IMG/VR virus record: IMGVR_UViG_3300028805_000083
Span: 37,572-101,571 of that record
Direction: 5' to 3' (one strand)
Source of the DNA: a virus
Lineage: Duplodnaviria > Heunggongvirae > Uroviricota > Caudoviricetes
DNA: 64,000 bases
Position 1 is the first letter of the stretch. Each line of letters opens with the position of its first letter. A model generated the notes under the pieces. The model was not told where the DNA came from, searched no databases, and was given only the letters and a program-made list of their open reading frames with translations. Below are positions 10,830 to 62,929 of this stretch, piece after piece. A program made the position numbers and the translations under genes.

Positions 10830-12176
10830 ATGGATTGGAAAGAGAATTTTATTAAGAAAGCGAATGAACGTCATAACAACAAATATGATTATTCAAAAGT
10901 AGAATATTTTAATGCAACAACTAAAGTATGCATCATATGTCCTATTCATGGAGAATTCTGGATGACACCGCAAAACCATTTAAAAAAACAAGGTTGCCCA
11001 CAATGTTCTTATGACGTTAATAGAAAAACAACTAGACAGTTTGTCATAGAATCACAAAAAGTTCATGGTGGCAAATATGATTATTCCAAAGTTAAGTATA
11101 AAAATGCAAATACAAAAGTTTGTATAATATGTCCAAAGCACGGTGAATTTTGGCAAAAACCTTCAGAGCATATCAATGGTCACGGATGTCCTAAATGTTC
11201 TCATAGAAGTTATATTTATACTAAGGATGAGTTTGTTAAAGAAGCACAGAAAGTTCATGGAAATAAATATGATTATTCTAAAGTAGACTATAAAGGCAAT
11301 AAAGTTAAAGCTTGTATAATATGTCCAGAACACGGAGAATTTTGGATGAAACCAAATAGTCATTTGCAAGGGCAATCATGCCCTAAATGTGTTCATAGAA
11401 GTTATGCATATACAAAAGAAGAATGGATTAAGGAGGCACAAAAGGTTCATGGTAACAAGTATGACTATTCTAAAGTAGAATATGTCAATAATGATACAAA
11501 AATTTGTATAATATGTCCAAAGCACGGTGAATTTTGGCAAAGACCAGCTAATCATTTAAACGGTAGTGGGTGTTGCAAATGCGGAAAAAATGACATGAAA
11601 GAAAAAACCAAAAAAAATAAAGAAGAATTTATTAAACAATCAAAATCATTTTTTGGTGATTGGTTTGATTATTCCAAAGTAAACTATGTTAACAATAAAA
11701 CAAAAGTCTGTTTAATATGTAAAAAACATGGTGAGTTTTATACAAGGCCAGATGGACATTTAACTTCTCATAGAGGATGCCCACAATGTGCCTCAGAAAA
11801 AAATATTCATGAGACTATACTTTTCGAGCATCTTAAAGCAAGATACAAAAGTGCAAATTTCTTTCACTCTAAAAGAGGTATAAAGAATCTAGGACTATTT
11901 GAAATAGATATATATGATGAGAAAAATAAAATAGCCATAGAATACCAAGGTGATGAACATTTTGAAGCAATAGATTTTTTTAATGGAGAAGATGGTTTAA
12001 ATGAAACTTTGGAAAGAGATAAAAGAAAAATTGAATTATGCGAAAATAATGGCATAAAACTATTTCACTTTACTTATAACAAGAATTATAAAAAAGATAA
12101 AATATCATATAAAGTATACACTGATGAAAATGAATTGTATAAAGAATTGGATATTATATATAAAGAAAAACTGTAA
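10830..12176 (+). mobile_element. Homing-endonuclease-like protein with repeated Zn-ribbon modules and a C-terminal PD-(D/E)XK/Vsr-like nuclease domain. It is the only long plus-strand gene.
   Basis: About six repeats of HG.KYDYSKV.Y....K.CIICP.HGEFW..P..HL.G.GCP.C, then a C-terminal FEIDIYDEKNKIAIEYQGDEHF block. Paralogs lie at 33459-34784, 14955-15392 and 52921-53901. It is on the opposite strand to its neighbours. Confidence 0.55.
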
Positions 12177-12180
12177 GCAA

Positions 12181-13422
12181 TCAATGCTTACAGTTTTTTA
12201 TTAAATTAAGTATATATTCACACTTTTCTTTGTTTCCTAACATTTTCCCTTTATCATTTGATAGTTTAACACAATCTTGCCACTCACGGCTTTCAGTAAT
12301 TCTAAATCCAGTGAGTTTTATTACAATATTGCTATATGGGAACTTCTCATTTGTTTCATAATTAGTTACGTCAGCGCATAAATGAGTTCCTATTCCCACT
12401 GAATCTTTCATACGCCCATTGAGCCAATTATGAAGTTCTATAGCCTTGTCAATTGTAAGAGCATTTGAATACACGATTGCCTTTGTCGATGGGTCAATAC
12501 CAAGAGAACGATACTTTTCAATAATCTTCTCAGTTTGTTCTTTCTCATCACCACTATCAACACGTAGGCCATCAAATGTTTTCGCAAGACGCTTAGACAA
12601 ATTAGGGAAGAACATAACATCTGAGAAATTATCATAAAGGAAAATTCCGACATCACCGTTAAAACAGCGACTCCACTTATCCATTACTTGATAGTTACAT
12701 TCAAACACGCCACTAACGCACTCTTCGGCAGATACAATCTGATGCGACATCGTGCCTATAACTCCAAGGTTAAATTCCTTTGCGAACCATACGTTAGATG
12801 TACCAACAAATTTACCCGTATAAATTTGAGGGCAATCCTTTTGACGATATTTCACAGCATCACAAAATGCTTTAAGTACATCGTGGTGGTTCTGGAAATC
12901 AAAGCGCCTGCGAGTTCCCATGTCAGAAATAGAAAGTCCACCTTTTAAAGCTTTTAATGCCTTGTCAAATGCCTTATTATATTCCACTTCACGGTCTACT
13001 TTTTCAATATCTCCATTAACAATATGCATCAACTCAGAAATGGTGGAGAGAATAGGCATTTCCCACATGATAGTTGAGTACCATTTACCCTCAATCATAA
13101 TTGAGAGATAACCCTCAAGGTCTTGGAAAATGTGTACCTCAGATGGGTTAAAACGATACCCACGAAGGAAATTGTAATACCAATCTGGAAGGAAATAAAT
13201 CTTGCTCTTCATGAAAGCAATCTCTTCCTCAGTGATAACGACATCTTTCATACCGTCAATCTGCTCTTGTAGAAGCTTACCAAACCCAGCTGGATACTTG
13301 GTGTGATTGCGGTCAAAGAAAGAATAACGTACCTCTGCACGAGGATAAGTGTGAAGAATGTAATACTGAACCGTATACGAATATAAATCGTTATCGGTAA
13401 AATGCGTAACAATTTGTTTCAT
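12181..13422 (-). CDS. pncB: nicotinate phosphoribosyltransferase
   Basis: SDMGTRRRF, FVGTSNVWFA and GLRVDSGD are signature NAPRTase motifs. 413 aa. Confidence 0.8.
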   Translation of the reverse strand: MKQIVTHFTDNDLYSYTVQYYILHTYPRAEVRYSFFDRNHTKYPAGFGKLLQEQIDGMKDVVITEEEIAFMKSKIYFLPDWYYNFLRGYRFNPSEVHIFQDLEGYLSIMIEGKWYSTIMWEMPILSTISELMHIVNGDIEKVDREVEYNKAFDKALKALKGGLSISDMGTRRRFDFQNHHDVLKAFCDAVKYRQKDCPQIYTGKFVGTSNVWFAKEFNLGVIGTMSHQIVSAEECVSGVFECNYQVMDKWSRCFNGDVGIFLYDNFSDVMFFPNLSKRLAKTFDGLRVDSGDEKEQTEKIIEKYRSLGIDPSTKAIVYSNALTIDKAIELHNWLNGRMKDSVGIGTHLCADVTNYETNEKFPYSNIVIKLTGFRITESREWQDCVKLSNDKGKMLGNKEKCEYILNLIKNCKH

Positions 13423-13864: not shown

Positions 13865-14063
13865 TAATATCTTCTACGGCATCAACTGTTTCAGTTGTAC
13901 TACTACTATTATAATAGTAAGTTCTATTGTTATGATAAGGATTATATCTATCATGGGAGTTATTAGAAAGTTCTCCCATGAAATAGAATGTTTCCGCACA
14001 AGAAACCATTAAGCAAATAACTAAGGCTACTCTAATTAACCCTCTAAATAAATCTCTTATCAT
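13809..14063 (-). CDS. hypothetical small secreted or membrane protein
   Basis: 84 aa with a hydrophobic N-terminus. Confidence 0.35.
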   Translation of the reverse strand: MIRDLFRGLIRVALVICLMVSCAETFYFMGELSNNSHDRYNPYHNNRTYYYNSSSTTETVDAVEDINDYEQDTARTYPQQEYEY

Positions 14064-14989
14064 TACCCAATTTTGATGTCTTCATAATTCTCATGATACC
14101 ATTTGTCGAATTCCTCAAACTCAGCGTCTGAGAACTCCTTACGTACTGCATCATACTCGATGTAATCGCAATACTTCACCTTAACGATGATACGATTACC
14201 ACTACCATCGCAAAGAGGAATGGTTGGACGTGCAACAATACCCTCTTCAAGCATGGTTGGGTCAGCAGCCCTATCAAACTGTGTGGTAAAACCAGCACGT
14301 ACCTTATCTTCAATCTCTTTAAGTGTCATAACACCCAAGAAAGGAACAGTGTTAAGATTCAAACCCTTACAAAGAGCGTCACGAACATCCTTTGGAGTCC
14401 ACCAACCTTGCTGCTTAATGTCGAATACAAGGAAATCATTACCATTCTGAATATAGCGAGAGCCACATTTCTGAATTCCACTTCCGAAATACTCGCCATA
14501 GATATAAATGGGAACTTCCTCTAGTTCCACACTGTAGAAACCTTTTGAGAGTGGTGTATCAATGCTATTGTAACCAATCATTTCATCTTCTCCAAGCTCT
14601 GGAGTATAGTACTGTACCTTGTTTGTATCCTTATTTTTCACAGGAGCAAATCTAGCACTCTCCTTGGGGAACATTGTACAAAGCTGTGGCTTAATTCTCT
14701 CACCAATTTTCTCAAGCATTTCAAACTGTCCATGCTGTGACTGTGCTTTCTCAGTTTTACCCTCAACACGAATCTCACCTGTTGAAGGGAAGAATGCAAT
14801 CTTGGAATTTGTACCATCTATTTTACTTGTAGCCTCCCAAGGACAATTGAACAAATGACCAGCCTCCTTAAATGAGAACTCACCAAGGATAATCTTGTTC
14901 TTGAATTTTGCCCATGCCTTATTAGGGCATTTGCTTGCGTCAAAGATATACCTTTTATACAATGTCTGTATTTTCTGGTAGGTTTCCAT
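14063..14989 (-). CDS. RNA ligase, Rnl2 family (T4 RnlB-like)
   Basis: EATSKIDGTNSKIAF is KxDG motif I (compare T4 Rnl2 EKIHGTNFS). GEYFGSGIQK matches motif IIIa (GEFAGPGIQK) and FLVFDI matches motif IV (FYVFDI). Confidence 0.8.
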   Translation of the reverse strand: METYQKIQTLYKRYIFDASKCPNKAWAKFKNKIILGEFSFKEAGHLFNCPWEATSKIDGTNSKIAFFPSTGEIRVEGKTEKAQSQHGQFEMLEKIGERIKPQLCTMFPKESARFAPVKNKDTNKVQYYTPELGEDEMIGYNSIDTPLSKGFYSVELEEVPIYIYGEYFGSGIQKCGSRYIQNGNDFLVFDIKQQGWWTPKDVRDALCKGLNLNTVPFLGVMTLKEIEDKVRAGFTTQFDRAADPTMLEEGIVARPTIPLCDGSGNRIIVKVKYCDYIEYDAVRKEFSDAEFEEFDKWYHENYEDIKIG

Positions 14990-17896: not shown

Positions 17897-17932
17897 TAAA
17901 GACCCTAATAAATTATATTGTTAGGGTCTTCA
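17897..17932 (-). terminator. Strong hairpin at the 3' end of the CCA-enzyme gene
   Basis: AAGACCCTAA...TTAGGGTCTT is a 10-bp stem flanked by A/T-rich sequence. Confidence 0.45.
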
Positions 17933-19319
17933 ATTTATTTTCAACAATTTCAAATGCTTCATCCTTGGTCATATTAGTATTCTCAAAGTAGGCATCTTTA
18001 ACTGCTTCTAGTAGTATACCAACAAGAGGTGAAGACTTGATACTAAACTCTTTCATAATGTCGTTTCCAGATATTGGAAGTTTGACATTTGCAGCTTTTT
18101 CAGCATCTTCCATTTCCTCAATCCTATTAAGAATATCAAGAACTTGTCTCTTTTTCTTACCATAGGTACAATGCAAGTTGTTGGCATTCATTAAGTCAAC
18201 TGTTGCACCAAGGTTTTCTCCAGTGGTATTAATAAATTTTCTAATCTTCTTATCTGGGGGCATTACACCATCAGCGTAAAGCGCAAATGCTCTATGATAC
18301 TTAATGGCTGTTTCTACCGTATTGATAACGTAGTTAGGGAACTTCATTTTCTTGAGGTCATCAGCAGCAACTTCAGCACTAAACTTATCAGGATTAACAT
18401 CCCTTCTACTATCAGTGATAACCTTACCAACATCATGGAACAATGCCGCTAGGCGATTATCAACATATGGCTGTACAGTATCTAACACATTCATGGTGTG
18501 GTCGAAAGTAGAAACCATTGGATTCTTTGACTCATAAGCATAAGTTGTGTCATATATGTCTGGCATTACCCTATGCAATATACCACAGTAGTACATCTTA
18601 CGAATACCGATACTAGGTTTCTCACAAAGCAGTATCTTTGATATTTCTTCACTGATACGCTCTTGAGATATAATGCTTATTCGATGCGCATTCTTAACCA
18701 TACCTAGCCATGTGTTTTTCTCAATTCCCCAACCGAATCTAGTTGAGAATCGAATAACACGCAATATACGCAATGGGTCATCATTGAATGTAACATCTGG
18801 GTCGGTTGGCGTTTTAATAACTTGATTAACAAGGTCATCCAATCCATTGTTGTAGTCATGAATCTTCTCCGTGCTAATGTTGTAATACAAAGAATTGATT
18901 GTAAGGTCACGCCTCTTAGCGTCCTCTTGAATCGTACCATACACGGTATCTGGATTTCTGCTCTCCTTATGATACTGCTCCTTACGAGTCTGAACACACT
19001 CAACCTCAATGTCTTTCAGCTCATCGTTTTTATAAAGCTGAAATTTAGCAGTTCCATAAGTTTCAAACAGAACAGGATTACTTCCTTGTACAAAACATTG
19101 ATGCTTCATTGTCATGTAGTTTGCAAATAGCATTCCTCCGTTTTTAATGTCTACACAAATATCGACATCTTTACAAGGTATTTTTAATAGAAGGTCTCTT
19201 ACACATCCACCAACTAGAAATACATGGTTTTCAAATGCAGTACCTTTGATTGATTCTTGTATTAGTTTAACTAATTTTTTAATCCTTTCGTCAGCGTTTT
19301 TAAACAATATTTCGTTCAT
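17913..19319 (-). CDS. cca: CCA-adding tRNA nucleotidyltransferase with an HD domain
   Basis: HVFLVGGCVRDLLLKIPCKDVDICVD is the pol-beta nucleotidyltransferase head (GGxVRD...DxD). LAALFHDVGK is an HD motif. 468 aa. Confidence 0.8.
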   Translation of the reverse strand: MNEILFKNADERIKKLVKLIQESIKGTAFENHVFLVGGCVRDLLLKIPCKDVDICVDIKNGGMLFANYMTMKHQCFVQGSNPVLFETYGTAKFQLYKNDELKDIEVECVQTRKEQYHKESRNPDTVYGTIQEDAKRRDLTINSLYYNISTEKIHDYNNGLDDLVNQVIKTPTDPDVTFNDDPLRILRVIRFSTRFGWGIEKNTWLGMVKNAHRISIISQERISEEISKILLCEKPSIGIRKMYYCGILHRVMPDIYDTTYAYESKNPMVSTFDHTMNVLDTVQPYVDNRLAALFHDVGKVITDSRRDVNPDKFSAEVAADDLKKMKFPNYVINTVETAIKYHRAFALYADGVMPPDKKIRKFINTTGENLGATVDLMNANNLHCTYGKKKRQVLDILNRIEEMEDAEKAANVKLPISGNDIMKEFSIKSSPLVGILLEAVKDAYFENTNMTKDEAFEIVENKLKTLTI

Positions 19320-21733: not shown

Positions 21734-23155
21734 TTATCCATGTTCTTCTCCATCGTCAGTATCTATAGCACCTCTTGTTACATCTGCTAAAGCACCTCTT
21801 AGTGTTGCTTGGTCGTGATATACCATGTTATTTGTGTTGTCAACAGTGAAGGGGTTGGCAAACTCAGCAGTAAGTCTATCAATCTCGTCTCTTATGCCAT
21901 GAACTGTTTCATCGTCATATAGTCCTTGCCACATACCGACTCCAACATCTACACCTTCAGCATTATCTCTTCCATTGTTATCTTCCTCTGCTGCATGCAT
22001 TTCATCAATGAAATCTATTTCTGCTTCATTATTACCCTCTTCCGCTGGAATGTTCTCTTCGTCTATCATTTCTCCATCTTCCATTGGCTCACCAATATCT
22101 TCATCGGCAAATGGGTCATTATATGTGAATGCATGTGCTGTCATTTTTTTCTTAAACGAGTCAGCCACGTATTCATTTTCTTTAAGCATCTTCGAAAAAT
22201 CAACTTTGAAAAAGGAAGAGGCTGTATCATTAAAGTGGAAAAACTGAAAGGAATTCAATGATTGGAAAAGAATATCATTAATGAAATTCTGATTAGAATT
22301 CTTAAATCTGCTGTATGTCCAAATATAAGGTTTCTTGTTATTCTCTACAATTTTATTATAGATTTTATCCATAAACATTCTCTCTTCTGTTATGTCTTTA
22401 ATAACAGTCTTATCATTGGAAGCCCAAGTAGAATGTTTGAATGAGTTCATTCCAGGATATGCGAATGATGGACAGCTAGCAGTTACGACACAAGCGATAT
22501 TATATTTTTTTAGAATCTTATCTATATTTTCTTCATTGTATTGCATTCTCTCATTTTCCCAATACATCTTTCTACCAATACGTTTCTCTTGCTCCATTCT
22601 CCATGTTCTATCAAGAGATACGCAACCGCCAATGCAAAGACAGTTAAACTTGCTCAGTTTGATAACTGAATAATCTTGAATTGTTTTGATGTTACTGAGG
22701 TCAATAAGAGCATCCTCAAAATACTTAGGGTCATCATTACCCCTAACAAACAATACATGTGTATTATTATCAGCTAGAACCTTATTGAACATTTCTAGTT
22801 TATCGTGATAGTATTTTAAATCTCTTTCACCAAATCCATTGCAACCATCTACAATGATAACTGTTTCTGTAAGGTTGTAACCACAATTCGTCATCTTTTT
22901 TTTCAGCCTAATAGGTCTAGGCGCATAGTGCGGTGCTGGACCGCCAAATATTCCGCCTCCACCATTATGGCTCTCTTCTTCCCTTTTCCTAGCCAATCTC
23001 TCTTGTCTTTCAATCTCTTTGGGGTGTGTCCCAACCACATAACTTTTTAAGTTGCGTAGACTACTGACTACTGTTTTGATAAATCTATCAAAGTTTCCGT
23101 CAATGTTACCGCAAATTACACAGTTTTTTGTTTTACCATAATCGTAAACTTTCAT
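21734..23155 (-). CDS. Metallophosphoesterase-like protein with degenerate motifs and an acidic C-terminal tail
   Basis: ICGNIDGNFD (compare SDIHGN), IVDGCNGFGERD (compare GD..DRG) and FVRGNDD (compare GNHE). The catalytic His residues are replaced. The C-terminal region is D/E-rich. Confidence 0.3.
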   Translation of the reverse strand: MKVYDYGKTKNCVICGNIDGNFDRFIKTVVSSLRNLKSYVVGTHPKEIERQERLARKREEESHNGGGGIFGGPAPHYAPRPIRLKKKMTNCGYNLTETVIIVDGCNGFGERDLKYYHDKLEMFNKVLADNNTHVLFVRGNDDPKYFEDALIDLSNIKTIQDYSVIKLSKFNCLCIGGCVSLDRTWRMEQEKRIGRKMYWENERMQYNEENIDKILKKYNIACVVTASCPSFAYPGMNSFKHSTWASNDKTVIKDITEERMFMDKIYNKIVENNKKPYIWTYSRFKNSNQNFINDILFQSLNSFQFFHFNDTASSFFKVDFSKMLKENEYVADSFKKKMTAHAFTYNDPFADEDIGEPMEDGEMIDEENIPAEEGNNEAEIDFIDEMHAAEEDNNGRDNAEGVDVGVGMWQGLYDDETVHGIRDEIDRLTAEFANPFTVDNTNNMVYHDQATLRGALADVTRGAIDTDDGEEHG

Positions 23156-32929: not shown

Positions 32930-33496
32930 TTATTTTATCATTTGATTGAAAATTTCTACTATACGATTCTTATGATTAAAAGCCCATTCATAATTATCAA
33001 TGTCTTTGACCTTAACCCAAGCAATCTTGCCAACCTCTTTGCCCTCATTATGCTCTTTAGAGAACTTAAAATCAGATGTAATGCGGTCTTCTATTTTGGC
33101 AGCAAAACGGAAAGTAACGTTCTGCCTATTTGCTTTAACTGGGTCATCCTCATATCCAATGAAAATCAAACTTTCAATAGGAATCTTAACTCCAGTTTCC
33201 TCAAAACACTCACGCACAGCACATTCTTTGGCGGTCTCGTTCCTAGAAAGATAGCCGCATGGACAATTCCACATGCCTCTGAAATCTGCTGCCTCTTCTC
33301 CGCGCTCACATGCTAAAACACACCAATCACCATTTTCGTCTTTAGAAAATACGAATAATGCAGTAGCCATAGAACGGCTAAACCACCCTAAAAAACGCCC
33401 ATATCTATCATAGCAAGGCTGATTTTCCAATGTTAACTCTGGGGCATTTTCTACCCATTTAAGGAGTTTTGTCAATAATTTCTTTAAATAATTCAT
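32930..33496 (-). CDS. Nudix hydrolase
   Basis: Nudix box GYLSRNETAKECAVRECFEETGV (G.5E.7REx2EExG). Confidence 0.8.
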   Translation of the reverse strand: MNYLKKLLTKLLKWVENAPELTLENQPCYDRYGRFLGWFSRSMATALFVFSKDENGDWCVLACERGEEAADFRGMWNCPCGYLSRNETAKECAVRECFEETGVKIPIESLIFIGYEDDPVKANRQNVTFRFAAKIEDRITSDFKFSKEHNEGKEVGKIAWVKVKDIDNYEWAFNHKNRIVEIFNQMIK

Positions 33497-34784
33497 CTAA
33501 ATTAAAATAAATTTTATCATAATATGTATCTGGAATATATCTTTTATCATTTTTTGCATAATAAAAAATTTTTATTCCGTTTTGTTTACATAGAGTATAT
33601 TTTCTTAAATCATTACATTTTATTTTTTCAAAACCTTCTTCTGTATTATAAAATTTGGCAAAATGCTGTTTACCTTGACATTCTATTGCCACATTATATT
33701 GTGGTAAATAAAAATCTAAACGTTGAAGTCCAAGCCACTTATCTTTATGCTCTTTTATGTATTCAACTCCTTTTTCTTCCAAAAAATTTTTGGTTTCTTT
33801 TTCTAAAGCTGAACTTTTGCAATAAGGACAGCCTTCGCCACTTAAATGTTTATTAGGAGTTTGGCTAAAATATTCTCCGCATTTTTTACATTTTATCTTA
33901 ATTTTAGTTTTTGCCCCTTTATATATAACAGAACTATAATCATAATCGTCACCATGAATTTTTTTGAACTCTTCAATAATGGTTTCAGTTGTTTTGTTTC
34001 TTCCTGCACATTTAGGGCAACCTTTACCTCTAAGGTGATTGTTTGGGGTGACTAAAAAATCACCGTGTACAAGGCACGTAACAATAATTTTTCCGTTTTC
34101 ATTCTTATTATTTAAATCAGTTCTATGATATGCATATTTATTTTGATGCCTTTTTGAGGCTAATTCTATGAATTCAGATGTTGTCATTCTTTTGGATTCA
34201 TTGTTACACAATGGGCATTCATCGCCTCCCTTATGGGAATGTGGGTTTTGCCAAAATTCACCATGTTTAGGGCAAATTATGCACACTTTACCGTCTTCTC
34301 TAGGGGCATCTAAATTCAACTTATCATAATTGTATTTTATTTTATGATTCGCTAAACAATAGTTAACATATTCTTTATATTTCTTTTCTGATTCGCAAAT
34401 AGGGCATTTTCCTCTTTTTCCGTTATAATACTTATGTACGCAAGGCTTTACTAGAAAATCCCCATGTTTTTTACAAGTGACTAAAACCTCAGTTCGTTCA
34501 TTTTTATAATCCACATGGTCATAACCAAACTCTCCATTATGAACCTTTATTGATTTTTCAATAAACTCTTTTTTTAGATTTTCTTGCTGTTTTTCTAATC
34601 TACATACATCACATATTTGATTTGCGTTTAGAAAATGGTCAGCAGTGGTTTTAAAATATTTTTTATGCTTTTTACAATAAGGATATATAAAATGTTTTGC
34701 ATCAACATATTCTATAGACGAAAAATCATATATATTGCCATATTTTTCTATTGCTTTGTTAATAAAAATTTCTTTTTTACCCAT
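33459..34784 (-). mobile_element. Homing-endonuclease-like protein with Zn-ribbon repeats and a PD-(D/E)XK/Vsr-like nuclease
   Basis: Repeated HG(D/E)F...P..H..G.GCP.C modules, then a C-terminal LDFYLPQYNVAIECQGKQHF block. Confidence 0.55.
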
Positions 34785-36983: not shown

Positions 36984-38744
36984 TTATTGTTCTACCTTTG
37001 TCCAATTATATAATCCTAAGTAGTAATTACCTATACCCATCCATACATTATAACCACTACTACCACTTGGGACTGTTAATGTACCTCCTGTTTTTACCTT
37101 ATTGAATGTATAATTTTTTATTGTAGGAGCTGTTATGGCATTTGACACTATACTTGTTAGACTGCTACATTCATAGAAAACATTATCACCAATAGTTGTA
37201 ACACCACTACCTATGGTTATACTTGTTAGACTGCTACAGTCACGGAAAGCCTCACCGCTAATACTTGTAACACTATTAGGTATGACTATATTTGATAGTT
37301 TCCTACAGTTTTGGAAAGCACCAAAACCAATACTTGTAACACTATTACCTATGGTTATACTTATAAGACTACTACAATTATTGAAAGCACCAAAACCAAT
37401 ACTTGTAACACTATCTGGTATTGTTATATTTGTTAAACTACTACAGTTTTGGAAAGCATAATTACCAATACTTGTGACACTATCTGGTATAATTGTTGTT
37501 TTACAACCTACAATTAAGGTATTTGTCGATGTTTCAATTATTGCATTACAATTATTACGTGAGTCATATACAGTATTGCCACTATTAACATTTATACTTG
37601 TTAAACTACTACAGTTTTGGAAAGCACCACCACCAATACTTGTAACACTGTTTGGTATTGTTACACTTGTAAGACTTGTACAGCCACCAAAAGCACCACT
37701 ACCTATGCTTGTAACGCCACTACCTATGGTTACACTTGTTAAACCACTACAATAGTTGAAAGCAGCATCACCTATGCTTGGAGTTGAATCACCTATAACA
37801 ACGGTTTCAAGATTCGGCCAACTAGACCTAAAGGAAGAACTTAACTCACACTTTGCATTATAATTTAGAACCTTTAATGCATTAGTACTTTCAAAAGCAC
37901 CACTACCTATGCTTGTAACGCCACTACCTATGGTTACACTTGTAAGACTTGTACAGCCACCAAAAGCACCACTACCTATGCTTGGAGTTGAATCACCTAT
38001 AACAACGGTTTCAAGATTCGGCCAACTAGACCTAAAGGAAGAACTTAACTCACACTTTGCATTATAATTTAGAACCTTTAATGCATTAGTACTTTCAAAA
38101 GCACCACTACCTATGCTTGTAACACTATCTGGTATGGTTACACTTGTTAAACTACTACAGTTTTGGAAAGCACCACCACCAATAGTTGTAACACTATCTG
38201 GTATATCTATACTTGTTAAACTACTACAATTATTGAAAGCAGCAATGTCAATACTTGCAACACTGTTTGGTATGGTTATACTTGTTAAACTCTCACAACT
38301 TAAGAAAGTATTAATACTAATATTTGTAACACTATCTGGTATAATAGCTTCTATCAAATTACCATTATAAAATGTAGGAGCATTATTACCACCCAATTTC
38401 GTCTTATCATATAACTCATATTTAACTGTGTGAACACCTGTCGTGTCAAATGTGTACGCAGTCACAAGTTCGTCAAGCATCACACCATCAATCTCCATTG
38501 ACTTAAATATGTTCTGCTCATAATTTGTTCTTAACGCTGTTGGCTCAGATGTACTTGTTACATTATACTTGCATATAAGCCTTGTCTCTACATAAGGATT
38601 ATAATGCACCTCATTCTCTTGTACACAGAGACTTACATTAGGCAAAATTAAATTTTGCCTAGCTTCTTCATACTCAGTATGATTATTAAATTTCTTTAAA
38701 TATTTTCCCATAATTCTTAAATGTATTTTTCTAATAAATATCAT
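36984..38744 (-). CDS. BspA-type leucine-rich repeat surface protein
   Basis: About 15 repeats of IPDSVTSIGSGAF.NC.SLTSI.IG. A near-perfect tandem duplication of 204 bp lies inside the gene. Confidence 0.8.
   Translation of the reverse strand: MIFIRKIHLRIMGKYLKKFNNHTEYEEARQNLILPNVSLCVQENEVHYNPYVETRLICKYNVTSTSEPTALRTNYEQNIFKSMEIDGVMLDELVTAYTFDTTGVHTVKYELYDKTKLGGNNAPTFYNGNLIEAIIPDSVTNISINTFLSCESLTSITIPNSVASIDIAAFNNCSSLTSIDIPDSVTTIGGGAFQNCSSLTSVTIPDSVTSIGSGAFESTNALKVLNYNAKCELSSSFRSSWPNLETVVIGDSTPSIGSGAFGGCTSLTSVTIGSGVTSIGSGAFESTNALKVLNYNAKCELSSSFRSSWPNLETVVIGDSTPSIGDAAFNYCSGLTSVTIGSGVTSIGSGAFGGCTSLTSVTIPNSVTSIGGGAFQNCSSLTSINVNSGNTVYDSRNNCNAIIETSTNTLIVGCKTTIIPDSVTSIGNYAFQNCSSLTNITIPDSVTSIGFGAFNNCSSLISITIGNSVTSIGFGAFQNCRKLSNIVIPNSVTSISGEAFRDCSSLTSITIGSGVTTIGDNVFYECSSLTSIVSNAITAPTIKNYTFNKVKTGGTLTVPSGSSGYNVWMGIGNYYLGLYNWTKVEQ
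37797..38204. repeat. Near-perfect tandem duplication (2 x 204 bp) inside the LRR gene
   Basis: Blocks 37797-38000 and 38001-38204 are identical over more than 150 bp. They encode the duplicated peptide GAFESTNALKVLNYNAKCELSSSFRSSWPNLETVVIGDSTPSIG. Confidence 0.7.
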
Positions 38745-38887
38745 TAAGATTTTGTTTCACTTAATTAAAAAAAAACAAGACATTAATAAAGGCAATGATA
38801 TAGAAGTTGGCACAAAGTACTGTTGGGGCACAAGAAAAAATGGGCGAATCAAAAAGATTCGCCCAAATTAATTACAAAAACAAGAAG

Positions 38888-38957
38888 CATTAAAGGTGGG
38901 ATTCGAACCCACAAAAATAGTGTTGCAAACTATTGAGTATACCATTCCTCCACAGAG
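38888..38957 (-). tRNA. tRNA-Cys(GCA)-like gene. The anticodon and T arms are canonical. The acceptor pairing could not be resolved.
   Basis: Anticodon arm ATAGT-TTGCAAC-ACTAT and T arm GTGGG-TTCGAAT-CCCAC. Confidence 0.45.
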
Positions 38958-38979
38958 ATACTTGCTGTATGCTTCTTTG

Positions 38980-39062
38980 TAGTGGTAGCTGAATTCGAAT
39001 CAGCGATAGGTTTCCCAACTTCCTTATGAGAGAAGCGCAATTGACCACTCTGCCATACCACT
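38980..39062 (-). tRNA. Type-II tRNA with a long variable arm and a CUCAUAA loop, anticodon CAU
   Basis: Acceptor AGTGGTA/TACCACT, D stem GCA/TGC, anticodon arm CTTCT-CTCATAA-GGAAG, 14-nt variable region, T arm GCTGA-TTCGAAT-TCAGC. Confidence 0.55.
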
Positions 39063-39303: not shown

Positions 39304-40680
39304 TTACTTTTTCCACCATTCTATTGTAGGGTCGATAATCCAATTTACAAATTTATCATATACTTTGCTGATTAAAATACGTTCATCGACCCACTCTGTT
39401 TCTACTGGAGCAACAATCATCTTTGGTGCGTTAGAGTAATTTTCATAAGAAGCTTTTGGAGTAAGGTGTACAGTGTTATTACCAATCTTCACAGTAATAT
39501 TCAAAGCATCAACAGCATCTTCTGCCTTCATTGCTGCATAGTCCTTACCAGCAGGTAATATTACTGTAAATGGAACTGGTTTTAAACCGCTTCTACCCTT
39601 TAGACCTCTTTCTTCTGCATGTGTGTTAACCATTACATCAGTATTAACGCCAAATAAAGCATGTACCTCATAAGTGTTACCTTCTCCTTCACCAATATAT
39701 AATGGAAGAGTGCCACCTGCTGCTTGCAATAAGATGTCAGCCTTATAAGTATCGCCATCCTTGACAAACAAAATGTCAAACACAATATCATTATAGTCAA
39801 AGTCTGAACTCATTGTACCAAGGTCTTCAGCCATAACACGTACACGGCTTACTGGCATAGATTCACCCTTTCCTGGAACTATTTTAACAATCCAATCATC
39901 ATAAACAAAGTCTCTTGCAACTTGTTCATTTTTATTTTGTCCAGTTGCTTCAAAATCGAAACCAACATAGTAATAATCACCAATTTTTTCCATTCTCCAA
40001 TTTTCATGGAATATACCACCATCTTGTGATGACTTACATTTCCAACCAAGTGTAGATGACTTTAGCATGAGGGTACATCCATTATAATTACCCATCCAAC
40101 TTGCGCCACCATTATTTGTGTTGTTAATATAATCCCACTCATAATTCGTTAGCTCTTCAAATTCTAATGGCCAATCACTTGTTTTTTTATGCTTTGTCCA
40201 ACAATACATTTCATTCATTTTTGCTGAACCTTTTCCTATACTCTGACCATTTCCGTCTGTATAAATAGAATCTCCGCAATAAACTTGTTGAACGAAGAAA
40301 TTTCTAAAATCAACATCTGTTGTATACTTTTCTTCACCTTTTTTACTAAATACTGCTAATACGGCAGCAAGTTCATCCTCGGTAATAGGTGCAGGTGTAG
40401 GATAATCTAAATAGCCCAAGCCATTAGAAGTACCCCATTCATTTCCATTAACATTTGCAACTCTCATTGCTCTAGATGCAGATGTGCTTGTAACAACCAA
40501 TGGTACAGTATTCATACCCCATCTGTGATTAGCATACTGCGCTTCAGTTACGCCAAATGTGGTGTTGAAGTTGTCAGTCAACACTTGTTCTTTTGTTTGT
40601 TCGTAGCTTGTTGGGTCAACATCTTTCACGCAAGATGAAATTGTAAATGCTGCCAACATAAATAAAAAAATCTTTTTCAT
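39304..40680 (-). CDS. large lipoprotein of unknown function
   Basis: Lipoprotein signal MKKIFLFMLAAFTISSC. 458 aa. Confidence 0.5.
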   Translation of the reverse strand: MKKIFLFMLAAFTISSCVKDVDPTSYEQTKEQVLTDNFNTTFGVTEAQYANHRWGMNTVPLVVTSTSASRAMRVANVNGNEWGTSNGLGYLDYPTPAPITEDELAAVLAVFSKKGEEKYTTDVDFRNFFVQQVYCGDSIYTDGNGQSIGKGSAKMNEMYCWTKHKKTSDWPLEFEELTNYEWDYINNTNNGGASWMGNYNGCTLMLKSSTLGWKCKSSQDGGIFHENWRMEKIGDYYYVGFDFEATGQNKNEQVARDFVYDDWIVKIVPGKGESMPVSRVRVMAEDLGTMSSDFDYNDIVFDILFVKDGDTYKADILLQAAGGTLPLYIGEGEGNTYEVHALFGVNTDVMVNTHAEERGLKGRSGLKPVPFTVILPAGKDYAAMKAEDAVDALNITVKIGNNTVHLTPKASYENYSNAPKMIVAPVETEWVDERILISKVYDKFVNWIIDPTIEWWKK

Positions 40681-46442: not shown

Positions 46443-46462
46443 AATTACCTATTTTATATTAG

Positions 46463-46539
46463 TTGCAGAGGATGGATTCGAACCAATCGACCTCCTAGGG
46501 ATGAGCCTAGGCGAGCTGACCAAACTGCTCTACTCTGCG
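46463..46539 (-). tRNA. tRNA-like gene with a CUCAU-containing anticodon loop of 6 or 8 nt and a bulged T stem
   Basis: Acceptor (C)GCAGAG/CTCTGCA, D stem GAGC/GCTC, palindromic anticodon stem CCTAGG around CTCATC. Confidence 0.4.
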
Positions 46540-49727: not shown

Positions 49728-49812
49728 AAGCCGTAGTGAGCGTAGTGGGATTCGAACCCACGTAGCTTATTGCCATAATAGTTTTAGAGACTATCCCAAT
49801 CGACCTCTCTGG
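49728..49812 (-). tRNA. Type-II suppressor tRNA with anticodon CUA (reads UAG), tRNA-Tyr-like and supF-like
   Basis: Acceptor GAGCGTA/TACGCTC is a 7/7 match. D stem CCA/TGG with an 11-nt loop. Anticodon arm ATAGT-CTCTAAA-ACTAT gives C34-U35-A36. The variable arm is 16 nt. T arm GTGGG-TTCGAAT-CCCAC. The bacterial tRNA-Tyr loop CUGUAAA differs by a single G-to-C change. Confidence 0.7.
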
Positions 49813-49829
49813 CATACGCTCATTATCTC

Positions 49830-50854: not shown

Positions 50855-51139
50855 ATGATATATTTTTTAATTTGTTTGTTATTATTAATGAATTTAAAAT
50901 ACTTCACTTATATTCCCCATCCAAACTAAAATATATCAGGACCACGAATCAGTTTCAGCTACCAAAACTCGCTAGAAACCTACCAAAAACTGTTTTTTCT
51001 CATAATGATAATTAATTTAAATTTGTTATTAAAAAACGGAAGCTTTTTTTCTAGAATAAATGATTTCAAGTCAAGTCCTATAGAAATTTGCTGTTAGCTT
51101 CCTTGATATATCCGCTTGTTTAGCAGAAAGGATTAGTTG

Positions 51140-51263
51140 CAGGGACTGACGGACTCGAACCGCCATCTTTTATTAACAGTTAAAGGTACAATCTGTTCCG
51201 AAGTCGAGACTGTGTGATTCCTTAAATCGCAACAAACCACTCTTACCATTGAGCTAAATCCCT
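51140..51263 (-). tRNA. tRNA gene carrying an intervening sequence of about 50 nt
   Basis: 5' half AGGGATT-TA-GCTC-AATGGTAA-GAGT and 3' half GGCGG-TTCGAGT-CCGTC-AGTCCCT have complementary acceptors but lie 124 nt apart. The insert contains a 25-nt element that also occurs at 15551-15575. Confidence 0.5.
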
Positions 51264-52861: not shown

Positions 52862-52936
52862 GCTCGAACTGACACGATGCGTTTCTAGCGTAGAAGGCTT
52901 ATGAGACCCACATGTTACCATTACATTATCCCGCTA
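52862..52936 (-). tRNA. tRNA-like gene with a CUCAUAA loop (CAU) and an extended variable region
   Basis: Acceptor AGCGGGA/TCCCGCA is a 6/7 match. D arm ATGT-AATGGTA-ACAT. T arm GTCAG-TTCGAGC-CTGAC. Confidence 0.45.
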
Positions 52937-53901
52937 TTTATAAATTTATTGAATTCATCTTCAACAAACTGTGGTTTATATTTACCCATATCTTTTATAA
53001 TATAAGGTATATAGCCACAATTCTTAATCTCTTTAATCTTTATTTTATCTCTATTTTGAACTTGTTCAACAGAATGGTCTTCTTTTATCTTTTGATAATG
53101 CCATTTCCCATTCCATAAAACAGCCACTTTAATGTCTTCTATAATAACATCAGCGTCCCAACCATTAAATATTGGCTCATTATGTTTTACATTATTGAAA
53201 TGTTTTTCACATAATTCACAGAAATATTTTTCATTTTTAGAACGTCTATTTTCTCCTTGAACTTTGGCAGAATTCTTTCCAGCAGTACTAAGTTTTTTTA
53301 TTGCGTCCTCAGAAAGATATTTCTTCCTATTAATTCGATATTCATTCAAGCATTCTCTAGAACAGAACATTCTAGTTGCACCACTTTCATTTAAATGGTA
53401 TTTTCTACCACATATACGGCATATATATTCTTTTCGTGGAGCTATAGTATTAGCAATGTTTTTCTTCTTTAGCTCATAAGATTCGCCAAATTTAGAGCGA
53501 TAATATTTTAATATTGATTCACTAGTTTTCCTTTTAGTTTCTTCACTTGGTTTTTCTCTTAACCTATTGTTGTATTTAGCTGCACAACTTTTAGAGCAGA
53601 AAAAATGTTTTGTTTTAGATGCTTTATAAGCACTAGCAGTAACTTCTACATTCTTACCACAATTTTCACAATGGAAATGATTCTTTTTTCTATGTGAAAA
53701 AGCAGAACAATCAATTGAACAGTATTTTAATCTTCCTCTGTTATTTTTTAACTCGAATGTTATCTGTTTTTTTTCGCCATAAAATATTTTTCCGCAATGT
53801 TCGCATTCTAATGCTAATTTATCTGTGCTTTTTGCATTTTTATATTCTTCATCTGTATATCTAACTATCATAATACATATTCTTATATATATAAATATCA
53901 C
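52921..53901 (-). mobile_element. Zn-ribbon repeat protein with a C-terminal Vsr/PD-(D/E)XK-like nuclease domain, probably a homing endonuclease
   Basis: Several CxxC...CxxC modules. GWDADVIIEDIKVAVLWNGKWHY resembles the Vsr core (D.vf...k.avFvdGcFWH). It sits inside the tRNA array. Confidence 0.5.
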
Positions 53902-54036
53902 GATGGTTGCGAAAATACGATTCGAACATATGTTTTTTAGGCTAAAATTCGGAAACTATATTTTTTCACATCTTAAATTTGCAGTTTAATGTTAAAAAAT
54001 TAATTGCTGTAAGTTTCCTTGATTAATTTCAACTTT

Positions 54037-54985: not shown

Positions 54986-55392
54986 TGATTTTCAGATATT
55001 TTAATGTGGACCTAGAGGGATTCGAACCCTCGTTCCAGAAATTCGCCTCATAAGAAATTATACAAGCTTCCCCAAAGTGTCCGAAAACACCGCCTTTGAG
55101 ACCACCTCATTTTGAGAAAACGAGGAAAACTAGGGGTGGATGACTAGAGTCACCGATTCCACCATCTTTTAAATAAAAAATATTAAAAAGAATAATGCTA
55201 GGATGTTCTGTTCCTAAGAGCCTAGCCTCTCGGCTCACATTACGCAGCTATAGCGTACTCGTAAGCAGGAGAATTAACATTCTCGCCAGTTATATTTTTT
55301 GCTATTTCAAGTGTATGCCCACTGCTTGTTTCTTACCAAACTCAACTCATAACGGTCAAAACCAAATAGGCCCAAATTATTTGTATTTTTGG

Positions 55393-55466
55393 TGTTGAAG
55401 GGGTGACTCGAACACCCAACCTATTGAATATCAGTCAATTGCGCTAACCAATTGCGCCACTCCAAC
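55393..55466 (-). tRNA. tRNA-Ile(GAU)
   Basis: Acceptor GTTGGAG/CTTCAAC, D arm GCGC-AATTGGTTA-GCGC, anticodon arm ATTGA-CTGATAT-TCAAT, T arm GGGTG-TTCGAGT-CACCC. Confidence 0.7.
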
Positions 55467-55634
55467 ATTAATAATGCTCTAACCTACTGAGCTACCACTC
55501 GATTATATAACTAGTTTGTGGAATTCCGATTCTTCACCACACAAGTTTCACTAGACCTCCTAATGTTATATGCGTCCGTTATAGGATACCAACGTTATAC
55601 GCTTGCCAATTTATTTATCGTACTGCGGAACTAG

Positions 55635-55859
55635 TTATAGACTTACCGTTTCGCAACTTTTTTTAAACTCTTCTAGAGTGCCATCAAAAATCCAATCTGA
55701 CACCCTATCATCTTTTACATTCTTTACTACAATTGTAACACGAGATTTGCCATCTTTCTCTTCCTCTTTGATGAGCCTAATATCTTCATATCTAAATATT
55801 GCAACTTTTACGCTTCTTGTCGGAAATCTCACTTGCAAGAATAGTTTACCATTTGCCAT
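55635..55859 (-). CDS. hypothetical protein
   Basis: ORF of 74 aa. Confidence 0.35.
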   Translation of the reverse strand: MANGKLFLQVRFPTRSVKVAIFRYEDIRLIKEEEKDGKSRVTIVVKNVKDDRVSDWIFDGTLEEFKKSCETVSL

Positions 55860-55934
55860 TATAAATATTGTTTTATGTTCAAAAAGTACGGAAACGTTTT
55901 AATACATTAAGTTGCTCTACCTAACTGAGCTACA

Positions 55935-56000
55935 AGGAGTATAAACCCCTCGATGGGATTCGAACCCATGACCTACTGCTTACAAGGCTTATTAAAAAAC
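55935..56000 (-). other. Juxtaposed tRNA halves in permuted order, a 3' half then a 5' half. See findings.
   Basis: On the minus strand the sequence reads ...ATGGG-TTCGAAT-CCCAT-CGAGGGG-T-TTATA-CTCCTTG-TA-GCTC-AGTTAGGTA-GAGC-A-ACTTA.... The strands CGAGGGG and CTCCTTG are complementary, with two G-U pairs. Confidence 0.4.
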
Positions 56001-56313
56001 TATTGCTGTCTGTTTCCTTAGCGCTTGAGGTCGGATTTGCACCTTCTGTCTCTGTCTCCATCTTTCGACTTTGTACCAGCGTTTATACTACTTAACACTT
56101 CTCAAGCATGTTTCGCCTACTGTACCCATGTGATAACTTGAACGATGTATCACATCAAGCCATCGCAGACTTGTCTTACATTAACGTAGTTAAGACCAAT
56201 ATACGGCATTCTTAACCTAAAGTATGCTTACGAGCACGTTACAGATATTCATTGTTTTGTATGTCTTGCAGATAAGCCTTTAACGTGCAAAAGGCTATTT
56301 TTCAGTATATCTA

Positions 56314-56421
56314 AAATGAAAACCACAATGAGGACATAAAAACACCTCACCATTCTCGTCAATTGCTTTGGAAATGTCAATTTTGACATTATTTCCACAT
56401 CTTACACATTTTACCTCCATA
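56314..56421 (-). CDS. Zn-ribbon mini-protein of about 35 aa (not in the ORF track)
   Basis: Hand translation gives MEVKCVRCGNNVKIDISKAIDENGEVFLCPHCGFHF, with CxxC...CxxC. Confidence 0.3.
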
Positions 56422-56498
56422 ACATTTATTTTTGTAATGCAAAGATATGAAAAAAAAATTGGAATAACCAAATATTTTAACGTTTTTTTAGAAAAGTG

Positions 56499-56573
56499 TT
56501 GGACTGGTGGGAGTCGAACCCACGATTTTCACCTTGTAAGGGTGCTGTCCTAAACCACTAGACGACAGTCCAG
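56499..56573 (-). tRNA. tRNA-Val(UAC)
   Basis: Acceptor TGGACTG/CAGTCCA, D arm GTCT-AGTGGTTTA-GGAC, anticodon arm CACC-CTTACAA-GGTG, T arm GTGGG-TTCGACT-CCCAC. Confidence 0.65.
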
Positions 56574-56896
56574 TTTGGCACGAACATTTTGTCATATATA
56601 CGTGTAGAATCTTTATGTTAAGCGAAACAATACAAAATTGTCAAGGGGTTTGCACCCTTATCGTTCTATTCAGAATAGAGTGCTTTGTTCTCTACCTCGT
56701 CTATTGCTAGACAAACTCAGTGCCTTTGTATCAGTCATGGTCTATTACAGACCAACCTTGCCTTTGTATTTGTAAGCAAACCAACCGATAACCCCACCCA
56801 AAATGAATTCAATCATAGTTGTAATATTTTTAAAAGATTAGACAATTAATTTGATGTTGCAAAGATATAAAAAATATTTTTAATTTCCAAATAAAA

Positions 56897-61545: not shown

Positions 61546-61550
61546 GTTAG

Positions 61551-61618
61551 AGCCTCGTGGGTGAATCGAACACCCCTCTCAAGATTACAAATCATGCATA
61601 ATAACCGATATACTAACG
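61551..61618 (-). tRNA. tRNA-Thr(UGU)-like
   Basis: Perfect acceptor GCCTCGT/ACGAGGC. Anticodon arm CATGA-TTTGTAA-TCTTG has one mismatch. T arm GGGTG-TTCGATT-CACCC. Confidence 0.55.
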
Positions 61619-61658
61619 AGGCATTACCTTATTTTTGTACACCGTGTAGGACTCGAAC

Positions 61659-62666: not shown

Positions 62667-62675
62667 ATATTCTTG

Positions 62676-62766
62676 TGCTTCCACAGGGAGTCGAACCCTG
62701 CTTTTCGGTTTAAAAGACCGAAGTAATCCGTCTGTCTCCAGGCACTTACCGATATACGATGGAAGC
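62676..62766 (-). tRNA. tRNA-Lys(UUU) variant with about 19 extra nt in the D region
   Basis: Perfect 7/7 acceptor GCTTCCA/TGGAAGC across 91 nt. Anticodon arm TCGGT-CTTTTAA-ACCGA. T arm CAGGG-TTCGACT-CCCTG. Confidence 0.5.
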
Positions 62767-62772
62767 GTATCG

Positions 62773-62845
62773 TGCGCCCAGAGGGACTCGAACCCTCGAC
62801 CCCAGCATTAAAAGTGCCGTGCTCTACCAACTGAGCTATGAGCGC
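62773..62845 (-). tRNA. tRNA-Lys(UUU), canonical
   Basis: GCGCTCA-TA-GCTC-AGTTGGTA-GAGC-A-CGGCA-CTTTTAA-TGCTG-GGGTC-GAGGG-TTCGAGT-CCCTC-TGGGCGC. Confidence 0.75.
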
Positions 62846-62857
62846 ATTAAACCTAAG

Positions 62858-62929
62858 TACTCCTAAAGGGATTCGAACCCTTAACCCTCGGCTTAAGAGG
62901 CCGCAGCTCTACCGTTAAGCTATAGGAGC
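62858..62929 (-). tRNA. tRNA-Lys(CUU)
   Basis: GCTCCTA-TA-GCTT-AACGGTA-GAGC-T-GCGGC-CTCTTAA-GCCGA-GGGTT-AAGGG-TTCGAAT-CCCTT-TAGGAGT. Confidence 0.7.

Follow-up and report, generated by a model that had tools for sequence, protein, structure and literature searches.

The locus and its layout

The subject of this analysis is an element on the minus strand of a stretch of DNA of 64,000 nucleotides (nt), called here the window, which covers positions 37,572 to 101,571 of the IMG/VR record IMGVR_UViG_3300028805_000083, a Caudoviricetes virus with a genome of the megaphage type. Within this element the 3′ half of a transfer RNA (tRNA) precedes the 5′ half, an order that an earlier note on the same DNA had ascribed to a permuted or tandem-split tRNA locus. 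The modules named there are all read directly on the minus strand: the T arm ATGGG-TTCGAAT-CCCAT (55969-55953), the 3′ acceptor strand CGAGGGG (55952-55946), the linker TTTATA (55945-55940), the strand CTCCTTG (55939-55933), which pairs with CGAGGGG at seven of seven positions with two G-U pairs, and finally TA (55932-55931) and the D arm GCTC-AGTTAGGTA-GAGC (55930-55914), which form the tRNA 5′ start as claimed. T arm, closed acceptor hairpin of 7 base pairs (bp) and D arm thus occupy 55969-55914; the span 55935-56000 proposed for the locus was too short, since it leaves out the outer parts of the RNA on either side as well as the D arm. With a probability of about three in four, 56021-55884 (minus strand) encodes one small structured RNA of the Y RNA type, a tRNA mimic with a permuted tRNA-like core. 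Its parts are the following.

55884-56021, minus strand: whole Y-RNA-like RNA, about 135 nt; match to positions 1-131 of covariance model R1 with 122 bits, a score obtained with a training set that includes the window sequence itself
56012-56017, minus strand: 5′ strand GGAAAC of P1, the terminal 'handle' stem; pairs with 55895-55890
56002-56009, minus strand: conserved single-stranded motif ACAGCAAU, 2 nt after P1; CAGCA is invariant in alignment A2
55978-55988, minus strand: V hairpin GC-CUUGUAA-GC, an anticodon-loop look-alike, tRNA positions 30-40
55975-55977, minus strand: 5′ strand AGU of P3, tRNA positions 41-43; pairs with ACU at 55912-55910
55970-55974, minus strand: variable loop AGGUC, in which C48 is the partner of G15; read directly, with GGUC as consensus in alignment A2
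55953-55969, minus strand: T arm AUGGG-UUCGAAU-CCCAU; 100% paired in 17 sequences, with changes on both sides in three pairs
55933-55952, minus strand: closed acceptor-like hairpin CGAGGGG, loop UUUAUA, CUCCUUG; 95% paired, with changes on both sides in six of seven pairs
55914-55930, minus strand: D arm GCUC-AGUUAGGUA-GAGC, preceded by U8 and A9 at 55932-55931; stem invariant, as forced by the search pattern
55910-55912, minus strand: 3′ strand ACU of P3, tRNA positions 27-29; supported by register controls
55890-55895, minus strand: 3′ strand GUUUCC of P1, then GUACUUUUU; P1 pairing is seen in the class of relatives, with a compensatory pair in relative L014

From 5′ to 3′ the RNA reads AAGGAAAC-AG-ACAGCAAU-AGUUUUUUAAUAA, then GC-CUUGUAA-GC, AGU and AGGUC; it continues with AUGGG-UUCGAAU-CCCAU, CGAGGGG-UUUAUA-CUCCUUG, UA, GCUC-AGUUAGGUA-GAGC and A-ACU, and ends in UAAUGUAUUAAAAC-GUUUCC-GUACUUUUU. 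The terminal stem GGAAAC/GUUUCC closes the RNA beside ACAGCAAU, and stem and motif together are referred to as the handle. Positions engaged in tertiary interactions of tRNA are readable in the core, namely U8, A14, G15 with C48, G18 G19, and T54-T55-C56. The spacers could also pair with each other (UUUUAAU/AUUAAAA), but relative L275 does not conserve this possible second stem, which is not claimed. Minimum free energy folding was uninformative (z-scores of -1.25 and -0.53). The pattern GGTTCGAATCC-N16-34-GTAGCTCAG, which describes a T loop followed at 16 to 34 nt by a D arm, occurs once in the window and never in 100 shuffles, so that the layout is not due to chance. The sequence AAGGAANCNNACAGCAA has three exact matches in the window, and five with at most two mismatches, against 0.65 expected.

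The 3′ piece begins at tRNA position 30 and the 5′ piece stops at position 29, such that the break points coincide exactly. From an in silico fusion of the pieces at 29/30, ARAGORN predicts a canonical tRNA-Thr(tgt) of 76 nt; this tRNA-Thr(UGU) folds into a perfect cloverleaf whose anticodon stem has 5 bp and whose anticodon loop has the canonical 7 nt. In its native order the element escapes this program, which calls no tRNA or transfer-messenger RNA (tmRNA) at 55884-56021, as compared with 15 tRNA or tmRNA genes elsewhere in the window. The element is therefore a circular permutation of a tRNA-like sequence, with a closed acceptor stem and a break inside the anticodon stem at 29/30.

A class of relatives and its covariation

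Relatives were gathered by pattern scans of viral, metagenome and genome collections, in which the ACAGCAAU motif (ACAGCAA) served as the anchor for recovery of the class. The terminal stem and ACAGCAAU recur in 56 distinct relatives, which come from contigs of phages, metagenomes and bacteria and make up a widespread class, and homologues at 16 other loci score 92-120 bits with model R1. The succession of T arm, closed hairpin and D arm is common, with 6-7 acceptor pairs in 32 of 125 viral matches and 63 of 119 metagenome matches. Two flavours can be distinguished. Flavour A consists of GGUUACUUCG, a 5-bp hairpin with an anticodon-like loop, the core and then CUACGU; it adjoins open reading frames (ORFs) of about 500 amino acids (aa), two of which (at L124 and L105) are confirmed as TROVE by Pfam, while 11 further neighbour ORFs match that of L124 by BLASTP. 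In flavour B, P1 ends 1-3 nt before a conserved ACAGCAA(U), and a P1 of 6-8 bp is found in 55 of the 61 pattern matches, with more than 20 different helix sequences (for example AGGAUAC/GUAUCCU, AAGACUCA/UGAGUCUU, ACGGUAUA/UGUACCGU and UGGACUCA/UGAGUCCA). The window RNA is of flavour B: its P1 (GGAAAC/GUUUCC) lies 2 nt before the motif, and its core comprises P3, a 5-nt variable loop, the T arm, the closed acceptor hairpin and the D arm.

The pairings hold across the class. P3, which corresponds to tRNA pairs 27-29:41-43, is paired in 90% of cells as against 30-48% in shifted registers; all three pairs form in 41 of the 56 distinct members, and many pair types occur, such as CGU/ACG, GAG/CUU and UAG/CUA. 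A model-based alignment of 17 sequences gives a covariation score of 0.50, compared with 0.16 in shuffles (none of 500 reaches the observed value), and 82.6% of cells are paired, compared with 33-53% when the partner strand is slid. Helix 1 scores low in that alignment owing to a register problem of 1 nt, which the direct search for P1 resolves. All 17 sequences form the inner two pairs of the V hairpin, and both strands of these pairs show changes; the D loops differ in sequence among members and keep the GG. Compensatory changes thus support the terminal stem, the 3-bp remnant of the anticodon stem, the T arm and the acceptor hairpin.

In flavour B the anticodon-like hairpin measures no more than 2-3 bp, and several members that adjoin the partner gene described below (L292, L293 and L304) have none at all; this argues against a decoding role for the class. 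One genome often has more than one flavour-B RNA, or the RNA stands in tandem with additional ACAGCAA units, as in L138, L139, L168 and L289 and in megaphage contigs (L267 with L013; L282 with L015). The megaphage clade has a second type of paralogue, GUGGAAACGU-ACAGCAA...ACGUUUCC, placed directly after a tRNA-Gly.

Permuted and split tRNA genes

The topology described in the earlier note stands: a 3′ half, a short linker and a 5′ half rejoin to a full cloverleaf, as in the permuted tRNA genes of Cyanidioschyzon merolae and Thermofilum pendens. The assignment to an algal or archaeal type of gene has to be given up. Genes of that type have a bulge-helix-bulge at the junction, whereas the window belongs to a bacterial phage and its halves are flanked by a conserved handle which, unlike the flanks of permuted tRNA genes, is common to RNAs without an anticodon hairpin or without any tRNA part. 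No bulge-helix-bulge exists at 29/30, where 2 unpaired nt (AA) on the 5′ side and 6 (UAAUGU) on the 3′ side are followed by an A/U stem, and the 3-nt/4-bp/3-nt arrangement is not present beside the break.

A functional permuted tRNA-Thr(UGU) gene would give rise to a decoding tRNA after cutting and ligation of its ends at 29/30 and opening of the acceptor loop by RNase P and RNase Z. The ARAGORN call on the rejoined pieces, the exact coincidence of the break points and the 7-bp acceptor stem speak for such a gene, as do the RNA ligase (14063-14989) and the CCA-adding enzyme (17913-19319) of the phage, and the possibility has been raised in the literature on YrlA (bioRxiv 10.1101/312249). It is nonetheless extremely improbable here, given that the flanks are the class-wide P1 and ACAGCAAU, that the loop between P2 and the body measures 2 versus 6 nt, that members adjacent to the partner gene dispense with the anticodon hairpin, that the V loops of both flavours display many different 'anticodons', and that an ordinary tRNA-Thr(UGU) gene is already present at 61550-61622. 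Moreover, the pairs C1-G72 and U2-G71 are unlike the bacterial tRNA-Thr identity pairs G1-C72 and C2-G71, and to our knowledge no splicing-type endonuclease is known in bacteria.

The absence of matching halves nearby, also claimed earlier, is borne out, as ARAGORN finds none and comparison of the rejoined tRNA with the ORF-free region upstream yields weak local alignments only. The second proposal, of two tandem intron-split copies of one tRNA with the ORF-free region as the intron, is not tenable: no other halves exist and no intron model matches. Neither group I or group II introns nor GOLLD, ROOL or another large RNA is found by Rfam at its thresholds across the window or at E≤10 in 55300-56700, and the ORF-free region is conserved in sister phages with or without the tRNA-like core. 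A tandem array of decayed tRNA units was likewise rejected (Tandem Repeats Finder reports none, and local alignment to the rejoined tRNA is weak), as were an origin from the tRNA-Thr(UGU) of the phage itself (49 of 74 positions identical, no closer than other tRNAs) and a permuted two-piece tmRNA (RF04321 scores 13.9 bits against a threshold of 47, and ARAGORN finds only the standard tmRNA at 55006-55373).

The same locus in sister phages

The INPHARED phage genome collection holds no DNA match to the source genome, and the exact module pattern has no match in IMG/VR. Relatives of the locus were reached through a 74-aa neighbour protein (contigs of up to 413 kb) and through a conserved upstream 19-mer, which led to five IMG/VR contigs of 95-295 kb. 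The locus exists in two states. The core is present in the window and in L007, L009, L015, L250, L254, L262 and L275. In L004-L006, L013, L014, L016 and L017 it is replaced by about 45-60 nt of AT-rich sequence, which forms a short hairpin inside the handle; these relatives retain AAGGAAAC-nn-ACAGCAA upstream and GUUUCC downstream, and L014 shows a compensatory P1 pair (GGAAGC/GCUUCC). Among seven sequences of the core-bearing clade, the only substitutions at paired positions are C40 to U, G71 to A (L015) and C3 to U (L275), all of which keep pairing; the remaining changes all fall in loops, linker or spacers.

These comparisons bear on the possibility that the element is non-functional debris, that is, the junction of two decayed tandem tRNA genes with the 3′ part of one followed by the 5′ part of the next. 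Tandem tRNAs with spacers of 5-11 nt do exist at 62675-62929, model R1 locally matches the junction of two tRNA-Lys genes (62808-62904, 52.6 bits), the core is missing in sister phages, and Y RNAs are thought to derive from dimeric tRNA transcripts (10.1101/312249). Independent decay, however, would not make the break points meet at 29/30, nor would it account for covariation in P1 and P3 and conservation of ACAGCAAU among 56 distinct relatives on unrelated contigs, and the substitutions at paired positions in the clade all preserve pairing. Debris is thus a very improbable explanation.

The ORF-free region contains a segment (56110-56240, minus strand) that is strongly conserved in all relatives, including those without the core. 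It carries a helix, GTCTGC/GTAGGC, with compensatory versions GTGCTC/GAGTGC in L013 and L014 and GTCAGC/GTTGGC in L250, and an extra inserted hairpin in the window, L007 and L015. No Rfam family matches the segment, which to judge from its sequence would be a structured RNA of no Rfam family. On the other side of the element, L004-L009 have a gene for a 186-aa CTP_transf_like protein (nucleotidyltransferase) between the Y-like RNA and a 78-aa ORF, which is not present in the window (compare 55860-55905). About 33 nt are alike at the starts of the two ORFs, which suggests loss of the gene by recombination between the repeated starts.

A putative Ro60-like partner protein

Flavour-B RNAs are frequently accompanied by a gene for a DUF2828/DUF7788 protein. 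Of the 54 copies with available flanks, 22 have such an ORF on their own strand, usually at a distance of 30-600 nt, and in bacterial contigs from metagenome-assembled genomes it adjoins 16 of 21 copies; none of the 54 has a TROVE gene beside it. Conversely, 13 of 80 DUF2828 loci in IMG/VR have a model match within 1.5 kb, always on the same strand.

Comparison of the DUF2828 profile with that of phage TROVE by hhalign gives a probability of 98.1% (E 1.3e-13, 378 columns). An AlphaFold model of a DUF2828 protein (predicted local distance difference test, pLDDT, 78.6; predicted template modelling score, pTM, 0.73) retrieves Ro60 structures, aligned over the full length, as all of its top 13 matches in the Protein Data Bank (PDB). 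The best are those of Thermus phage phiLo (9KOP, E 4.8e-9, and 9L5Y), then come Deinococcus 2NVO and 1YVR, and Ro60 of Xenopus and of human is among the 13. A PDB sequence search with the profile returns only a weak Ro60 hit (E 0.17). By profile comparison and predicted structure, the DUF2828 family is a distant relative of Ro60. It contains at least 6,490 clusters; all of the best 120 listed are named 'hypothetical protein' at their source, and a full-text literature search for DUF2828 returned nothing on RNA.

The gene association also bears on a reading that does without Ro60, in which the RNA would be a tRNA-like element of tRNA arrays, acting as a decoy for tRNA-targeting nucleases of the host or for tRNA-binding factors, or as processing or terminator punctuation, with the handle needed for folding or termination. 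Copies do abut tRNAs: among 44 phage copies of flavour B, ten begin within 40 nt of a tRNA end (eight of them within about 4 nt) and nine have a tRNA at most 40 nt downstream. The V loops look like anticodon loops and present a variety of triplets, each of the four handle RNAs in the window has a U-run after its P1, and no Ro60-like gene is found in the window or near the megaphage copies. This explanation is unlikely, however, because the same handle and core occur beside same-strand DUF2828/Ro60-like genes in 22 of 54 copies, which makes a protein partner the simplest reading of the handle. Furthermore, termination does not explain the conservation of ACAGCAAU, and some handle RNAs have no tRNA-like part, so that a decoy cannot be the common denominator.

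Assignment to the Y RNAs

YrlA-type bacterial Y RNAs have been likened to circularly permuted tRNAs with closed acceptor stems (bioRxiv 10.1101/312249; PMC4201824), and the likeness of Y RNAs to algal permuted pre-tRNAs has been discussed (bioRxiv 10.1101/312249). The layout of the window element is therefore an architecture already published. YrlA is defined by T and D stem-loops with a closed acceptor-like stem-loop between them, a 5′-proximal GNCGAAN0-1G, which is the proposed contact with Ro60 (Chen et al. 2014, PMC4201824), and a Ro60 gene within 4 kb (PMC4201824). It is also the only relevant Rfam match of the element: in a permissive scan of 55300-56700 it aligns with 55908-55977 (minus strand) at 39.7 bits (E 6.5e-7), over model positions 23-87 only, which form the tRNA-like part. 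The T- and D-like stem-loops of the window RNA hold the invariant nucleotides of tRNA (UUCGAAU in the T loop, GG in the D loop, U8 A9 and G15-C48), the acceptor-like hairpin is closed, with 7 bp, of which six covary, and a 6-nt loop, and the 5′ and 3′ ends pair through a stem that extends from the anticodon-stem position (P3 and P1).

Several observations weigh against the assignment. The score of 39.7 bits is below the Rfam gathering threshold of 69 for YrlA (RF02553). GNCGAAN0-1G is absent between P1 and the T arm, where ACAGCAAU is conserved instead, and its only match, GTCGAAAG at 56069-56062, is outside the RNA and not conserved in L007 or L004. No TROVE-like or DUF2828-like protein is found in the window (best E-value 0.3), hence no same-strand TROVE/Ro60 gene within about 4 kb, in searches that applied Pfam to 15 of the larger ORFs, used 18 Ro60-like proteins as queries in tblastn and blastp, and ran both profiles by hmmsearch against a six-frame translation in which TAG was read as Gln. 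The megaphage relatives are likewise without such a gene within 2-8 kb of their copies. In sister phages the tRNA-like core is replaced by an AT-rich hairpin and is thus dispensable there. Finally, the D arm, the T loop and, in the metagenome set, the CUUGUAA loop were fixed by the search patterns, which makes their conservation partly a matter of construction.

With regard to the first point, the Rfam threshold is a weak test, since YrlA-like RNAs of phages that adjoin TROVE/Ro60 genes also fall short of it. These bona fide phage YrlAs score only 32-53 bits, a range in which the 39.7 bits of the window RNA are typical; DUF2828-adjacent RNAs score 37-47 bits with YrlA and match no other Rfam family. 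Two ORFs of the window were considered and rejected as partner candidates: 39304-40680 starts, by eye, with a lipoprotein-type signal peptide, 21734-23155 reads, by eye, like a metallophosphatase, and neither has a Pfam or PHROG match.

Other handle RNAs and neighbouring genes

Three further RNAs of the window carry the handle.

53945-54022, minus strand: paralogous handle RNA without the tRNA-like core, P1 GGAAACU/AGUUUCC and ACAGCAAU; short AT-rich inner hairpin
51032-51106, minus strand: paralogous handle RNA without the tRNA-like core, P1 GGAAGCU/AGCUUCC and ACAGCAAA; short AT-rich inner hairpin
38882-38977, minus strand: paralogous handle RNA, P1 AAGAAGCAU/AUGCUUCUU and ACAGCAAG; encloses a non-permuted tRNA-like body without an acceptor stem

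Their handle consensus is AAGGAAnC-nn-ACAGCAA ... GnUUCC followed by a U-run. The first unit is conserved in L215, L004, L007, L008 and L259, the last with a compensatory pair (AGGGAACUA/UAGUUCCCU); the second resembles units in L275 and L014; the third begins 2 nt after tRNA-Met (38979-39062) and scores 41.6 bits as an Rfam tRNA over 38888-38959. All four handle RNAs share the strand of the genes, belong to the tRNA-rich part of the window and have a U-run after P1. In these four RNAs, one handle is thus combined with exchangeable inner modules: a permuted core, a non-permuted core and short hairpins.

Other unusual tRNA-like sequences are found in the region. A cloverleaf-like element, GCUUGAG...CUCAAGC (56107-56023, minus strand), ends 2-3 nt before the Y-like RNA and is called by neither ARAGORN nor Rfam; the variant in relatives has a T arm TAGG-TTCAAAT-CCTA and a 7-bp/6-nt 'anticodon' hairpin, and the element may be a tRNA-like processing signal. 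On the minus strand as well are a 124-nt sequence that scores as a tRNA (41 bits) with a long internal insertion (51140-51263), a 92-nt 'tRNA-Val(gac)' (62675-62766) whose insertion includes GGATTACTTCGG-TCTTTTAAA-CCGAA, similar to the hairpin region of flavour-A Y RNAs, a tRNA with a 2-nt anticodon according to ARAGORN (46462-46539), and a suppressor-type tRNA with the anticodon CUA (49736-49821; 'Pyl' in ARAGORN), also present in relative L014. The last hints at TAG reassignment in the phage lineage and is the reason why TAG was read as Gln in the six-frame searches. The standard phage tmRNA (55004-55373, minus strand; tag GENVNSPAYEYAIAA, Rfam 55.2 bits) directly follows a tRNA-Ile and is found in all relatives.

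Among the protein genes, those for the RNA ligase (14063-14989, minus strand; PF09414) and the CCA-adding enzyme/poly(A) polymerase-family protein with an HD domain (17913-19319, minus strand) share their strand with the tRNA-rich region and make up a set for RNA repair and tRNA maintenance. A nicotinate phosphoribosyltransferase is encoded at 12181-13422 (minus strand). ORFs with DUF4379 or DUF723 zinc-finger domains or a match to an HNH-endonuclease PHROG (10830-12176, plus strand; 33459-34784 and 52921-53901, minus strand) are possible homing-endonuclease-like genes scattered in the region.

Proposed mechanism and its meaning

By analogy with Ro60/Y RNA particles (PMC4201824; PMC12135203) and from the gene neighbourhood in relatives, the handle would dock a Ro60-fold protein of the DUF2828/DUF7788 clade. 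For the window copy, the gene of this partner would have to lie in another part of the megaphage or in the host, which is the weakest link of the proposal. The tRNA-like centre would be an exchangeable effector, with possible roles in attracting exonucleases or enzymes that recognise tRNA, or in shielding the RNA. The RNA would be co-transcribed with the surrounding tRNA genes and excised by tRNA-processing enzymes. With its 7 bp, the acceptor hairpin may in addition be a substrate for RNase P, which would open it, and for CCA addition, both of which are reported for YrlA of Mycobacterium smegmatis.

A broader model can be put forward only tentatively, at somewhat less than even odds. In it, the proteins of the DUF2828/DUF7788 clade have the ACAGCAA-handle RNAs as their cognate Y RNAs, and megaphages have built on this handle a family with interchangeable modules, which would load a Ro60-like protein of the host or one encoded at a distance; the window copy could be converted by RNase P and CCA addition into a two-piece mimic of tRNA-Thr. 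Should the placement of this protein family with Ro60 be confirmed, a functional class, that of RNA-chaperone or quality-control rings, and a cognate RNA could be assigned to thousands of phage and bacterial proteins now called 'hypothetical'. One handle with different modules in a single megaphage provides a naturally occurring test case for the view of Y RNAs as 'tether plus effector module'. The exotic reading of a permuted tRNA gene in a phage gives way to a documented kind of RNA, and annotation pipelines should not label such loci as tRNA pseudogenes or split tRNAs.

Comparison with known systems

The closest known system is YrlA (RF02553), with which the window RNA shares the order of T arm, closed acceptor-like hairpin, UA and D arm, the paired ends, the retention of tRNA tertiary nucleotides, an optional hairpin upstream of the T arm, and occurrence in phages. 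Both are modular, with a protein-binding stem and a tRNA-like effector, roles that are attributed here by analogy. The handle of YrlA contains GNCGAAN0-1G, whereas that of the window RNA has ACAGCAAU beside a stem of 6-8 bp. The neighbour of YrlA is a Pfam TROVE protein, while the relatives of the window RNA adjoin DUF2828/DUF7788; YrlA has its partner gene nearby, the window copy none within 64 kb. YrlA of S. Typhimurium lacks an anticodon loop, in contrast to the window copy, which keeps a full mimic of the anticodon arm. YrlA of M. smegmatis has, like the window RNA with its 6-nt linker UUUAUA, a 7-bp acceptor-like stem, for which RNase P cleavage and CCA addition are reported (PMC4201824).

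Thermus phage phiLo (PMC12135203) offers a parallel in which a phage Ro60-fold protein is accompanied by the phage-encoded Y-like RNAs Yrl1 and Yrl2. Those RNAs were recognised beside the gene from a bulge with the motif CGAA; the window RNA differs in its motif and in the protein clade, and has no nearby gene. YrlB, a Y RNA without a tRNA-like domain, is comparable to the short handle RNAs at 54022-53945 and 51106-51032 and to the L004-type locus, although its handle sequence differs from that of the window. The Y-RNA-type tRNA mimic is thus a known kind of molecule; what is new is the handle of ACAGCAA and P1, the putative DUF2828/DUF7788 partner and a class that Rfam 15 misses at its thresholds.

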